From: a virus | DNA: 24,179 nucleotides | Reading direction: 5' to 3' (one strand) | UHGV virus genome: UHGV-0071260 | In this document: positions 2,611 to 14,586 of the stretch, piece after piece | How the letters are laid out: each line of letters begins with the position of its first letter | How positions within the stretch are numbered: the stretch's first letter is position 1 | The notes under the pieces: generated by a model | Database searches by the model: none | What the model saw: the letters and a program-made list of their open reading frames with translations, nothing else | Told to the model about the DNA's origin: nothing | Program-made: the position numbers and the translations under genes

Positions 2611-3150
2611 ATGAAAAATGATTACGGCGGCAGCCATACGCCGAAAGAAATAAAAGACTTATGGCAAACGCCAAAACCCGTTTTTAGAGGAATGGATCGA
2701 GAATTCGAGTTCGTCGCGGATGTGGCGGCAAACAAGGCAAACGCATTAATACCGCGATATATAACCGAAGAAATGGACACGCTCCATTATCCGTGGGGAG
2801 CGGTGGCGATGCCTGGTGAGTATGTCTGGATGAATCCGCCATATTCTAATCCGGGGCCATTCGTTGATAAAGCGGCGCTTGAACACAGCCGAAATCATAT
2901 CGGATGCGTAATGTTATTGCCCGCTGACATTTCTGTTAGCTGGTTTATGAACGGCGTGGAGACGGCAAACGAATGCCGATTAATCACGCGCGGGCGGCTG
3001 GCGTTTATCAATGCTGCAACAGGGAAACCAGTAAGCGGGAACAATAAGGGGAGCTTGTTCCTGATCTGGCATCCACGATGCAGACATGAATGTATTTTCA
3101 CGCAGATAACACGTAAAGAGCTATATGCAAGAGGTGCAGAAAATGAATAA
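2611..3150 (+). CDS. DNA N6-adenine methyltransferase, phage Dam family
   Basis: NPPY catalytic motif (WMNPPYSNP) and N-terminal WQTP motif typical of the phage Dam family; AAGGGGG RBS. Confidence 0.8.
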   Translation: MKNDYGGSHTPKEIKDLWQTPKPVFRGMDREFEFVADVAANKANALIPRYITEEMDTLHYPWGAVAMPGEYVWMNPPYSNPGPFVDKAALEHSRNHIGCVMLLPADISVSWFMNGVETANECRLITRGRLAFINAATGKPVSGNNKGSLFLIWHPRCRHECIFTQITRKELYARGAENE

Positions 3151-3463
3151 AGCGGCTGAATTGCTGAGACTTGCGGCTGAAACTATCGAGGCAAGAGGGG
3201 AGCAAAACGGATACGATCGAAAAGAAGAAAAATCAGCGCCAAAAATAGCGGCTATTTTCAACGCTAAGATGAATGCGAATTTAACCCCACTTGATGTATG
3301 GGATCTAATGATTTGCCTCAAGGAAGCGCGTTTAGGGGCTATTCTCGCTAATGGAACTGATCCGCTCGACACTCTTATAGACCTTATTGCTTATAACGCG
3401 CTTAAGGCCGAACAGATATTAGCGTATCGGGAGGAAGAGCTAAATGAAGATGGTGGCAATTGA
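3143..3463 (+). CDS. hypothetical protein
   Basis: ATG at 3143 with GAGGTG RBS, overlapping Dam stop; the track ATG at 3125 lies inside Dam. Confidence 0.5.
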   Translation: MNKAAELLRLAAETIEARGEQNGYDRKEEKSAPKIAAIFNAKMNANLTPLDVWDLMICLKEARLGAILANGTDPLDTLIDLIAYNALKAEQILAYREEELNEDGGN

Positions 3464-3947
3464 CAGGTTATTAGCCTGCGTTTATGTCGCCGTTTTCGTT
3501 ATCATCAATCTTATTGTTAACCACTGTGGCCCGTGGGTAATTCCGATCACCACGGTAGCCGCCGTGTGTGTCAATATGATGATTCGTGATTTTCTGTTAT
3601 ATGACGGCGGCCTTAAATGGTCGGCTACAACATGCGCCGCCGCTGGCGCAATCACGGTGCTGATAAATTACGACGCCGGAATGGTGGCGATCGCCTCATT
3701 CGTCGCGGTTGTTTCCGGTTCGCTTATTTCTGGCGGCGTTTACCGGGTTTTACCTGGTGATTTCGATTCGAAACGCTGGCCTGCAAATATAGCGTCAGCC
3801 ATAGGCGATGCGTTGATTTTCCCTACACTATCGTTTATGGCGTTTATGCCGGAAATATCAGCGATGCAATTCATCTCAAAAATGGCAGCGGTAACGGTGA
3901 TCACTATCATCATGCGCCGCTATTTCACGTTTGAGGGAAGAAAATGA
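3444..3947 (+). CDS. compact polytopic inner-membrane protein (about 5-6 TM helices)
   Basis: Six hydrophobic segments in 167 aa; GGGAGGAAG RBS; stop overlaps the downstream ATG (ATGA). Confidence 0.6.
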   Translation: MKMVAIDRLLACVYVAVFVIINLIVNHCGPWVIPITTVAAVCVNMMIRDFLLYDGGLKWSATTCAAAGAITVLINYDAGMVAIASFVAVVSGSLISGGVYRVLPGDFDSKRWPANIASAIGDALIFPTLSFMAFMPEISAMQFISKMAAVTVITIIMRRYFTFEGRK

Positions 3948-4732
3948 GCAAGGGCAAACATTGGTTAAATAATTGGCTTAGAAGTTGGGTGGTGTGGTCG
4001 CTGTACGACGGCAGCGGGTACGCCGTTAAAGATTGGGCGGAAGCGGGATATAAGTGCTATTGCTTCAATTATGACGGTGCAAATCACGGCGATTATGAAG
4101 GCGTTAAAATCATTCATCCTAATATTGAATACGTTAACGTGTGGATTGACAGCCATTTCCTGGTAATGTTCTCGCCTGAATTGTCTTCTTATCCAGCACC
4201 TGACATTATATTGGGCTTTCCGCCGTGCGACGATCTCGCCGTTTCAGGCGCTCGCTGGTTCGCTGGTAAACGGGAAAAAGATCCTGCCTTCCAGGTAAAG
4301 GCGGCGTATAACGCAAAACTGGTAGAAAAACTGGCGAATATGTATAACGTGCCGTGGATGGTGGAAAATCCGGTGGGCGCACTGTCAACGTTATGGCGCA
4401 AACCTGATTTTATCTTCAACCCGTGCGCTTACGGTGGCTACCTGCCGGAAGACGATAAACACCCTGCTTTCCCTGAATACATAGCGGCCCGCGACGCATA
4501 CACGAAGAAAACTTGTATCTGGTGCGGGAATGGATTTAAGCAGCCGCTATTCCGGCCTGTGCCAATGCCTGATGAATGGGAAGACAGTAAGCAGCACGCT
4601 AAGTTAGGAGGAAAGTCGAAACGCACTAAGATGATCCGCTCACTAACGCCGCGCGGCTTTGCCCGTGCTGTATTCCTGGCTAACGACCGGGCCATCAATC
4701 GCACTACGCTTAACCGCGTTTTACCGGACTGA
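3944..4732 (+). CDS. C5-cytosine DNA methyltransferase-like protein, divergent (PCD in place of PCQ)
   Basis: Motif I-like DGSGY, motif IV-like GFPPCDD, motif VI-like VENPVG in canonical order; short C-terminal region; GAGGGAAG RBS. Confidence 0.55.
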   Translation: MSKGKHWLNNWLRSWVVWSLYDGSGYAVKDWAEAGYKCYCFNYDGANHGDYEGVKIIHPNIEYVNVWIDSHFLVMFSPELSSYPAPDIILGFPPCDDLAVSGARWFAGKREKDPAFQVKAAYNAKLVEKLANMYNVPWMVENPVGALSTLWRKPDFIFNPCAYGGYLPEDDKHPAFPEYIAARDAYTKKTCIWCGNGFKQPLFRPVPMPDEWEDSKQHAKLGGKSKRTKMIRSLTPRGFARAVFLANDRAINRTTLNRVLPD

Positions 4733-4755
4733 AATTTACAAAATGGCGCCATTGC

Positions 4756-4769
4756 GTGATGTGGATCAC
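4756..4769. promoter_or_regulatory. palindromic motif GTGAT-N4-ATCAC (copy 2 of 3), flanked by AATGGCGCCATT-type palindromes
   Basis: cGTGATgtggATCACATAA; perfect 12-bp palindrome AATGGCGCCATT at 4742-4753 and near-copy AATGGCGCTATT at 4772-4783. Confidence 0.3.
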
Positions 4770-4891
4770 ATAATGGCGCTATTCACTTTGTTCTGGTGTA
4801 TCCATTTTGTATGCTTCAAGCAAACGAAATGCTCTTTAAAAATCCGGCAGCGCTGAAATGCGTAGAAATCACCTGAAAAGGAGAGAGCATT

Positions 4892-5068
4892 ATGTCTTTT
4901 GATGATTACCAATGGCATGACGACTATGAACGAGAGAGCGTCATGCGTGCAATGTGCAATGTATGCAGCACAAAGAAAGGAGGCTGTAACGAGTGCAACG
5001 AATGCCTAGATCATTGGCTAATGGCCGGACACGCCGAAAGGCTGAACGAAACAGAGAATCAAAAATAA
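4892..5068 (+). CDS. small Cys-rich putative zinc-ribbon protein (58 aa)
   Basis: Read from sequence: MSFDDYQWHDDYERESVMRAMCNVCSTKKGGCNECNECLDHWLMAGHAERLNETENQK; GGAGAG RBS; below the track cut-off. Confidence 0.4.
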   Translation: MSFDDYQWHDDYERESVMRAMCNVCSTKKGGCNECNECLDHWLMAGHAERLNETENQK

Positions 5069-5082
5069 TCGGGGTGGTTTTT

Positions 5083-5688
5083 ATGCAGAACCCTAAAAAA
5101 CCCATAAGACGCCGTTGCAAATGCTGCGGCGTTTTTTTTGAGCCTAAATATCACAATCAAACGTGGTGCAGCGATGAATGTCTGGAAGAACTGAAGTTTG
5201 ATCAGCTATGCCGCGATCGTGAAAAGGCTATGAAGGCTATGGAACGAAAGAAACACCGTGATAGCCAGCGGGAAGAACGCAACCGGAAGCGGAAGCAGTT
5301 AAATCCGCGCAGCTACTGGATTAAACAGGCGCAAAACGTTTTTAACGCTTATATACGCGAGCGTGACGCGCGATTGCCGTGCATATCATGCGGGACTTAC
5401 TACGGTGAGCAATGCGGGTGGGATGCAGGCCATTACAGGACGGTAGCAGCCGCCGGACACCTTCGCTTCAACGAGGATAATTGTCACAAGCAATGCAGGC
5501 ACTGCAACCAGACACTAGACGGCAACATCGGAGGGTATCGCCCGGCGCTGATTCGAAAAATTGGCCTCGCCAGGGTGGTAGCTCTGGAGAACAACAACGA
5601 AACTCACAAATGGACGATTGCAGAATGTAAGGAGCTAATAAACATCTATCAGGCGAAATTGGACGCCTTAAGGAGAAAGGCAGCATGA
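5083..5688 (+). CDS. ninG: NinG/Rap-family recombination protein
   Basis: Close match to lambda NinG signature (PRSYWIKQAQ, FIRERD, LPCISCGT, WDAGHYRT, LRFNE, HKQC, CNQ, WTIAECK); ATG at 5083 follows a GGGGTGG RBS. Confidence 0.85.
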   Translation: MQNPKKPIRRRCKCCGVFFEPKYHNQTWCSDECLEELKFDQLCRDREKAMKAMERKKHRDSQREERNRKRKQLNPRSYWIKQAQNVFNAYIRERDARLPCISCGTYYGEQCGWDAGHYRTVAAAGHLRFNEDNCHKQCRHCNQTLDGNIGGYRPALIRKIGLARVVALENNNETHKWTIAECKELINIYQAKLDALRRKAA

Positions 5689-13583: not shown

Positions 13584-14075
13584 ATGATTAACCAATCGCT
13601 GAAAAACCGATTAACTAAGGCGGCGGCTGGTGGAGTATTAGCCATTGCATCCGTTTTGCTTGTATGGGTTGAGGGTACGGCTTACGAGCCTTATTACGAT
13701 ACCGGAGGCGTGCTAACTGTATGCAATGGCATAACTGGACCTGATGTTGTCCCAGGTAAGAGATACACACCGGATGAATGCGAGAGACTTTTACAAAAAC
13801 ACTTAGCCGTTTATAAAAAGGCGGTAGATCGTTATGTAAAAGTTGACATGAATGACTACCAACGCGCCGCGCTAATTAGCTTTTCATACAATATCGGGGT
13901 TGACGCTTTCAAAAAATCAACCTTGTTAAAAAAAATAAACAAAGGCGACTTTAAAGGGGCGTGTAAGGAGTTAGATCGCTGGGTATATGATAACGGGCGA
14001 TACATACAGGGCTTAAAAAATCGTCGCGATATTGAGCGCACCGTTTGTGAGTGGGGCGTAAATGATGGAAAGTGA
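13584..14075 (+). CDS. SAR endolysin (phage lysozyme, T4-lysozyme fold)
   Basis: N-terminal signal-anchor-release helix AAAGGVLAIASVLLVWV; catalytic E-x8-D-x5-T spacing (EGTAYEPYYDTGGVLT); close resemblance to P21 R; track ORF 13503 starts upstream of the likely ATG. Confidence 0.9.
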   Translation: MINQSLKNRLTKAAAGGVLAIASVLLVWVEGTAYEPYYDTGGVLTVCNGITGPDVVPGKRYTPDECERLLQKHLAVYKKAVDRYVKVDMNDYQRAALISFSYNIGVDAFKKSTLLKKINKGDFKGACKELDRWVYDNGRYIQGLKNRRDIERTVCEWGVNDGK

Positions 14076-14586
14076 TAATGAACTAAAACGAAAACTACAC
14101 TACGACCCGGCAACAGGTATTTTTACCTATAAAGTTAGCCCACACGGGAGGATCAAGGCGGGTAGTGTAGCCGGGTATAAACATAAAAGCGGGTATATAT
14201 ACATAGGAAGATATAAAGCGCATCGCCTCGCGTGGTTTTTCCATTATGGGGTGTGGCCCGAAAAGGACATTGATCATATTAATGGGATAAAAACAGACAA
14301 CAGGATAGTAAACCTTAGAGAAACAGATGATGCGCATAATTGCAGAAACAAGAAACATATTACCACTCATACATTGTCTGCATTCAGGGGCGTTAGCTAC
14401 CACAAAACGGATCGTGGTAATCCTAAGTGGCGGGTAAGAATTACTGACAATAACGGTAAACGTATATCTATTGGTTTATTTGACTCACTAGACGAAGCAA
14501 TCGCCGCTCGCATTTTGGCAGAAAACTTTTTCTATGGTGAATATGCACCTTCGATGGGTTGCGAGGGGGAAACGTGGACAAGATAA
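14062..14586 (+). CDS. HNH homing endonuclease with AP2-type DNA-binding domain
   Basis: HNH motif DHINGIKTDNRIVNLRETDDAHN and AP2-like segment FRGVSYHK...WRVRI; overlaps endolysin 3' end and Rz 5' end. Confidence 0.85.
   Translation: MMESDNELKRKLHYDPATGIFTYKVSPHGRIKAGSVAGYKHKSGYIYIGRYKAHRLAWFFHYGVWPEKDIDHINGIKTDNRIVNLRETDDAHNCRNKKHITTHTLSAFRGVSYHKTDRGNPKWRVRITDNNGKRISIGLFDSLDEAIAARILAENFFYGEYAPSMGCEGETWTR

Follow-up and report, generated by a model that had tools for sequence, protein, structure and literature searches.

The window considered here is the whole of a 24,179-nucleotide stretch of viral DNA, UHGV virus genome UHGV-0071260, and its gene of interest occupies positions 3944..4732 on the plus strand (ATG start, stop codon included), where an open reading frame (ORF) of 262 amino acids (aa) encodes a compact Dcm-like DNA cytosine-C5 methyltransferase. 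Its Asp96 form is a minority allele, and the gene adds one more member to the compact orphan cytosine-C5 methyltransferases of phages, an abundant family that is already known and in part characterised. Its ATG overlaps the stop codon of the preceding ORF, which encodes a membrane protein, in the tetranucleotide ATGA (3944-3947), and a Shine-Dalgarno-like GAGGGA lies 5′ of the start. The ORF is a real gene under purifying selection because the ratio of nonsynonymous to synonymous substitution rates (dN/dS) between alleles of the mEp021 group of coliphages is 0.08-0.15. An initial annotation of the window, made from the letters alone, had placed a 262-aa ORF here and read in it three C5-methyltransferase motifs in the order I, IV, and VI; the ORF, the motifs, and their order are all present in the sequence.

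Motif I, the S-adenosylmethionine (AdoMet)-binding loop S19-L-Y-D-G-S-G-Y26 (3998..4021, +), includes YDGSGY at residues 21-26 (nucleotides 4004-4021) and aligns to the counterparts SLFDGIATG in DNMT3A, STFAGGGG in CmoX, and DLFAGIGG in Dcm. The F-x-G-x-G pattern is represented by Y21-D-G23-S-G25, as compared with F-D-G, F-A-G-G-G, and F-A-G-I-G in these three enzymes. In the subgroup from enterobacterial phages, residues G23, S24, and G25 vary little or not at all, while across the wider family Gly23 varies and D22 and G25 are kept. Motif IV, G91-F-P-P-C95-D96-D-L-A-V-S-G-A103 (4214..4252, +), bears the catalytic nucleophile Cys95 and the variant position Asp96; its GFPPCDD core covers residues 91-97 (nucleotides 4214-4234; codons CCG CCG TGC GAC GAT from the first proline onward), with the Cys95 codon at 4226-4228 and the Asp96 codon at 4229-4231, and the corresponding motifs are SPCNDLS in DNMT3A and PPCSAFS in CmoX. 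Conservation of at least 90% was scored on alignment A1, and residues were counted over 111 aligned sequences with a residue at the position. By these measures, C95 is at least 90% conserved (Cys in 102 of the 111 sequences), position 92 is Phe in 98 and Ser in 3, and G102 of motif IV is invariant; K109 and A120 are also near-invariant family-wide. Motif VI is of the ENV type, M139-V-E141-N-P-V-G145 (4358..4378, +), with VENPVG at residues 140-145 (nucleotides 4361-4378), and aligns to LENV of Dcm; E141 and N142 are at least 90% conserved, and P143 is invariant.

Further downstream, conservation and a β-strand predicted by AlphaFold2 at residues 190-195 (the K-K-T-C-I-W region) delimit a motif VIII-like strand, R183-D-A-Y-T-K188-K189-T-C-I-W-C-G-N-G-F198 (4490..4537, +), in which D184, Y186, K188, T190, and W193 are at least 90% conserved. 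This strand would be the counterpart of the one that bears Arg-x-Arg in motif VIII, and it carries K188-K189-T-C-I-W. The model has only about 55 ordered residues beyond the strand; they form a coil, then two short helices, and finally a helix at 237-252. The variable loop at residues 199-221 (4538..4606, +) is the least conserved internal stretch of the protein and a candidate minimal target-recognition region. It is followed by the conserved C-terminal block that extends from G222 to N247 (4607..4684, +) and includes IRSLTPRGFARAVF; R232, P236, G238, and A242 are at least 90% conserved within the block, and the model has helices there at 226-233 and 237-252, the second of them being the final helix of the protein.

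To place the protein among known enzymes, a profile and an AlphaFold2 model were built from an alignment of 86 diverse family members. The model has a mean predicted local distance difference test score (pLDDT) of 91.0 and a predicted template modelling score (pTM) of 0.88, and when it is compared with the PDB by Foldseek, the first 50 matches are to DNMT3A, DNMT3B, and DNMT3C together with entry 3g7u, with E-values down to 3e-7 (DNMT3B). Its structural neighbours in BFVD are phage “DNA-cytosine methylases”. Because the model and both sets of neighbours agree, the fold may be regarded as settled by predicted structure, as the class I AdoMet-methyltransferase fold of the C5 type. The profile alignments point the same way: motifs I and IV line up with those of all three enzymes (DNMT3A, CmoX, and Dcm), and motif VI lines up with that of Dcm. 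The register with E. coli Dcm runs through FAGIGG, PCQ, and ENV; in the DNMT3A alignment (E 2.8e-4), SLFDG falls on SLFDG and PPCTDLA on SPCNDLS; and the CmoX profile aligns over motifs I-IV with an E-value of about 1e-4. Thus, the C5-methyltransferase fold proposed in the initial annotation is upheld by the register of motifs I, IV, and VI and by the agreement of AlphaFold2 and Foldseek, including the two checks that had been suggested for it, structure prediction and alignment to Dcm.

The family to which the protein belongs is large. PHROG 757, “DNA methyltransferase”, matches residues 5-255 with an E-value of 1.6e-88, and of 8,000 candidates that were scored, 7,719 proved to be related protein clusters. 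The compact Dcm-like family amounts to 1,259 representatives at 50% identity and is found in 1,513 (about 3%) of the 50,697 phage records searched, including those of Drexlerviridae, rV5-like phages, Kagunavirus, Dhillonvirus, and Klebsiella siphoviruses. A typical member is 225-260 aa long, and there is no solved structure of the compact family. As a side observation, the BFVD match A0A6J5SE15 from an uncultured phage joins a compact methyltransferase domain to a 1,397-aa protein whose N-terminal domain is of the helicase/UvrB type.

The best functional evidence comes from a homologue in phage KarlJaspers (Bas06). The 262-aa protein is 60% identical (E 1e-102) and alignable end to end with bas06_0055, the product of a 711-bp gene annotated as a “Dcm-like C5 cytosine methyltransferase”. 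The phage K42 described in a study of retron Ec86 is a KarlJaspers strain with 95.4% genome identity and has a 711-bp dcm gene (bioRxiv 10.1101/2023.08.16.553469, later published as Wang et al., Cell Rep 2024;43:114857). It has been found there that all escape mutants of retron Ec86 disrupted K42 dcm and that dcm expression was toxic only when the retron was in the cell. Liquid chromatography–mass spectrometry against a 5-methylcytosine (5mC) standard revealed high C5 methylation of the multicopy single-stranded DNA (msDNA) with wild-type K42 Dcm, and low methylation with the C82A/E128A/K175A/K176A mutant and with the empty vector; the two lysines had been taken as substrate-binding after superposition on DNMT3A (bioRxiv 10.1101/2023.08.16.553469). 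The residues C82, E128, K175, and K176 stand in KarlJaspers Dcm at the positions reported for K42 Dcm, and they correspond to C95, E141, K188, and K189 of the window protein in an alignment that is ungapped around them. Since all four residues align, the window protein belongs to a family with demonstrated 5mC-forming activity.

KarlJaspers/K42 Dcm and the window protein also share the SL(F/Y)DGSG, FPPCxDLA, ENPVG, and IRSLTPRGFARAVF blocks, and both are small (236 aa and 262 aa, respectively) products of orphan phage genes. They differ in that the window protein has PCD in place of PCT, an additional 13-residue N-terminal helix and C-terminal tail of about 15 residues, and a variable loop of the SxQxxKLGG rather than the NPGW type, and in that KarlJaspers is a virulent member of Drexlerviridae, whereas the phage in the window is temperate and mEp021-like.

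Taken together, the product of the gene is very probably an active, stand-alone (orphan) AdoMet-dependent DNA cytosine-C5 methyltransferase of the compact phage Dcm-like family. In the mechanism proposed, Cys95 would attack C6 of a flipped-out cytosine, Glu141 of the ENP motif would protonate N3, Lys188 and Lys189 would hold the base in place of the motif VIII arginines, and AdoMet bound by the SLYDGSG loop would give its methyl group to C5, while sequence recognition would be supplied by the variable loop of about 25-30 residues (199-221). The enzyme would be expressed from the early rightward operon together with a methyltransferase of the Dam type. The gene most likely serves to pre-methylate phage DNA against host restriction enzymes, and as a side effect, its product may act as the trigger sensed by retron Ec86 (Eco1). 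Carrying the gene thus predicts that a phage is sensitive to hosts with retron Ec86/Eco1 and that its DNA bears 5mC. The family also shows how small a C5 methyltransferase can be and still work, at about 230 residues with a very small loop for recognition.

Comparison with better-known C5 enzymes shows where the compact protein departs from them. The catalytic domains of DNMT3A and DNMT3B (PDB 6u8p, 4u7t, 5yx2) share with it the SLFDG motif I, an ENV-type motif VI, a PC-x-DL motif IV with a residue other than Gln after the Cys (PCN), and a short target-recognition region, but they are only 12-16% identical to the phage protein and are eukaryotic, CpG-specific, and oligomeric, with a clear motif X (GRSWSVP); the phage protein, unlike them, escapes detection by PF00145. 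The canonical bacterial enzymes of the PF00145 type, E. coli Dcm, M.HhaI, and M.HaeIII, share the motif order of the phage protein, whose motifs I, IV, and VI align in register with theirs, and yield the same product as the K42 homologue, 5mC. They differ in having PCQ, a length of 327-472 aa, a large target-recognition domain between motifs VIII and IX, Arg in motif VIII where the phage protein has Lys, and separate motifs IX and X where it has one conserved C-terminal block. This single block, IRSLTPRGFARAVF, resembles motif IX of Dcm, RRLTPRECARLMGF, and in an alternative hhalign alignment it also pairs weakly with motif X of CmoX; it takes up the position expected of motif X and the last helix. 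Motifs IX and X may have been merged in the family, or one of them lost.

Several points weigh against reading the gene as an active DNA cytosine-C5 methyltransferase of the family described. At the level of sequence profiles, canonical enzymes are matched weakly (E 1e-4 to 0.8) and in the N-terminal half only: against the PDB, the 86-member profile gave only sub-threshold matches to DNMT2 (E 0.2) and M.HaeIII (E 0.8), with PPC on PPC, and against the CmoX-family profile, the global hhalign alignment is meaningless and the local one comprises motifs I-IV only, at 57% probability. By the hhalign alternatives and a hidden Markov model (HMM) of the C-terminal region, the single block may be either motif IX or motif X. 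Direct Pfam and NCBIfam scans of the 262-aa protein gave no match, PF00145 included, and this very common phage family is invisible to both; a phmmer search of the single sequence against PDB sequences returned chance matches only. In favour of the assignment, PF00145 is the sole Pfam family that turns up repeatedly among the members, with weak matches in 9 of 86 relatives (best E 2e-5). As for function, the CCWGG specificity of K42 Dcm was taken from E. coli Dcm rather than mapped; a CCTGG mutation in the msDNA stem abolished defence, and the assays were done in MG1655 (bioRxiv 10.1101/2023.08.16.553469). A search of the literature on the recognition sequence of the compact family turned up no paper mapping the target, which apparently has never been mapped directly. 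MG1655 is dcm+, a point that the preprint does not mention, and because it carries its own Dcm, the low 5mC in the controls makes CCWGG no more than a putative site of the phage enzyme. Finally, the experimentally tested K42 allele is taken as PCT from KarlJaspers as a stand-in, and the activity of the Asp96 allele is an extrapolation from it.

The residue after the nucleophile deserves separate consideration, since the initial annotation had treated Gln after the catalytic Pro-Cys as invariant and the Asp found here as its replacement. This invariance does not hold: human DNMT3A (sequence 100% identical to PDB 5yx2) has PCN, SpCmoX and all of its PF00145-positive relatives considered (120 of 120) have PCS, and KarlJaspers Dcm has PCT. 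Hence, with PCN in DNMT3A, PCS in CmoX, and PCT as the family consensus, the residue after the nucleophile is polar but variable in active enzymes. The motif IV consensus of the compact family is FPPC-T-D, and Asp96 is a minority variant of the Thr consensus, present in about 5-7% of members. Among the closest 120 clusters, 112 have PPCT and 6 have PPCD; position 96 in the 111 aligned sequences is T in 93, D in 8, and E in 3; and over all 268 fetched family sequences, T occurs in 204 and D in 13. The mEp021 group holds both forms, PCD in the window, mEp021 gp33, P0001, and P0002, and PCT in P0003. Asp96 is also found in clusters of 626 and 559 member sequences.

The Asp96 allele is predicted to be active. 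The alternative that survives best, although we consider it improbable, is that Asp96 alleles are weakened or inactive and are kept for DNA binding, for regulation, or for avoiding the triggering of retron Ec86. Such a view is consistent with the low frequency of Asp in the family and with its position directly adjoining the nucleophile; moreover, an abortive-infection system responds to methylation by enzymes of this family, so that selection could favour loss of activity. However, the remaining catalytic and near-invariant residues are all intact in the window protein, the dN/dS of its gene fits the expectation for an enzyme, alleles with Asp96 are abundant, and the position accepts T, D, E, and N within the family and Q, N, and S in active enzymes elsewhere.

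That the protein leaves little room for target recognition, as the initial annotation had noted from its length, is confirmed by the very small size of the region concerned, about 25-30 residues. The variable loop comes in at least two forms, NPGWxKxGG and GYSxQxxKLGG, which replace one another in alleles with 88-94% identity elsewhere in the sequence: one form is shared by the window and P0001, the other by mEp021 and P0002 (compare L001 5503-6261). Judging from this pattern of variation, residues 199-221 would constitute the minimal target-recognition element, and the exchange suggests its cassette-like swapping.

Another chemistry was also proposed in the initial annotation, namely that the covalent Cys mechanism serves a different modification of pyrimidine C5, for example hydroxymethylation. 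In this alternative, which appears very unlikely, the group transferred would be a carboxymethyl from host carboxy-S-adenosylmethionine (Cx-SAM), as in CmoX, or a hydroxymethyl. E. coli makes Cx-SAM, and the near-invariant Arg232 adjoins the position weakly aligned with Arg350 of CmoX; both facts count in favour of such a transfer. SpCmoX, which carboxymethylates DNA cytosine at C5 in Synechococcus phage S-B43 (PDB 8yf3; PMC12783734), resembles the window protein in having a non-Gln residue after Pro-Cys, but it is a PF00145-positive protein of 372 aa with SPPC and Arg350, encoded beside cmoA and cmoY, and none of these features applies here. It has been shown that CmoX transfers the carboxymethyl group from Cx-SAM and owes its selectivity to Arg350, which occupies the position of Asn304 of M.HhaI and binds the Cx-SAM carboxylate; its relatives are defined by SPPC together with the Arg, and cmoA and an amide ligase gene usually adjoin (PMC12783734). 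The compact family instead has FPPC. In the weak alternative hhalign alignment, which is without statistical support, it is Ser233, not an Arg, that pairs with Arg350, and Arg232 falls on the preceding Gly. No cmoA-like, cmoY-like, or ligase gene was found among the window ORFs scanned or in the neighbourhoods of the homologues. In addition, position 96 is not known to select the cofactor, and expression of the 60%-identical K42 enzyme increased 5mC in E. coli MG1655. The proposal of a different C5 chemistry is therefore unsupported, given the 5mC product of the K42 homologue and the lack of cmoA and cmoY among the scanned ORFs, and nothing points to hydroxymethylation.

There is also little probability in a reading that makes the Asp96 sub-clade, or the compact family in its entirety, something other than a plain version of Dcm, in which the swappable loop of 25-30 residues would direct the enzyme to a short or unusual target unlike CCWGG and, at the extreme, Asp96 would shift the chemistry to a non-methyl group, for example carboxymethyl from host Cx-SAM. 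Least likely of all is an RNA substrate, such as transfer RNA in the case of DNMT2, since DNA methyltransferases gave the higher scores in the comparisons, the homologue methylated the DNA part of msDNA, and the gene adjoins that of a Dam DNA methyltransferase in a phage region of DNA metabolism.

The preferred assignment, an orphan DNA cytosine-C5 methyltransferase, can also be viewed in its genomic setting. The window is the early-to-late region from the genome of a temperate coliphage in the mEp021 (“mEpimmI”) group, and its positions 3442-4800 are 87-91% identical at the nucleotide level to six mEp phages and phage MagusPhagus. The gene order is Dam, DUF6378, membrane protein, methyltransferase, NinG, RusA, and the Q antiterminator, with lysozyme, terminase, and portal genes further downstream; the order from Dam to Q recurs in mEp021 and in one E. 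coli prophage. The Dam-type N6-adenine DNA methyltransferase (2611..3150, +; Pfam PF05869, E 1.9e-51) belongs to the same early transcription unit. A simple terminator scan directly 3′ of the cytosine methyltransferase gene gave nothing convincing, while mEp021 has an annotated terminator and nutR2 there; in the mEp021 paper, the gene is counted among probable phage functions, with the nutR2 site just downstream. Of 5,426 complete E. coli genomes, 32 contain related alleles (84-95% nucleotide identity), which are labelled either “DNA cytosine methyltransferase” or “hypothetical protein”, and the mEp021 counterpart already carries the annotation “putative DNA cytosine methyltransferase”. The assignment itself is little new: mEp021, BASEL phages, and RefSeq E. 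coli prophages all have the gene under the label of a (putative) DNA cytosine methyltransferase.

A restriction-modification pair was considered and rejected, as an endonuclease-like neighbour was found neither among the window ORFs scanned nor in mEp021 or the E. coli prophage; the methyltransferase is regarded as an orphan because no such partner was found nearby. The preceding gene encodes a 167-aa multi-pass membrane protein (3444..3947, +; PHROG 4899, E 4.7e-46, function unknown), which is translationally coupled to the methyltransferase through the ATGA overlap and whose homologue in mEp021 is annotated with six transmembrane segments. It has a full-length but weak match, below the cut-off (E 0.094), to Pfam Vut_1, the family of YhhQ-type precursor transporters, and only 12 related clusters were found in 5.8 billion proteins, apparently all from mEp021-like phages. 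A functional partnership in which this protein would be a Vut/YhhQ-type transporter of a cofactor or base precursor was rejected as a general feature because the Pfam match is below the cut-off, the protein is confined to mEp021-like phages, and it is absent beside the methyltransferase in Drexlerviridae.

A few further observations concern the neighbouring genes. The DUF6378 ORF (3125-3463, +) has 112 aa as against 164-165 aa in mEp021 and prophage L010, and since nucleotide similarity to the mEp phages begins only at about 3442, it is a divergent or shortened allele. The NinG ORF (4993-5688, +) has a GTG start and 231 aa, its Pfam match begins at residue 35, and NinG of mEp021 has 201 aa; the true start is probably an internal ATG (MQNPKK...). 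Just upstream of it lies a 58-aa Cys-rich NinF-like ORF (4892-5068, +). Finally, an ORF of the homing-endonuclease type with HNH_3 and AP2 domains (14062-14586, +) follows the lysozyme gene, and a similar ORF is found elsewhere in the related E. coli prophage, between NinG and RusA (L010 5732-6208); the differing positions suggest that this ORF is a mobile insertion.

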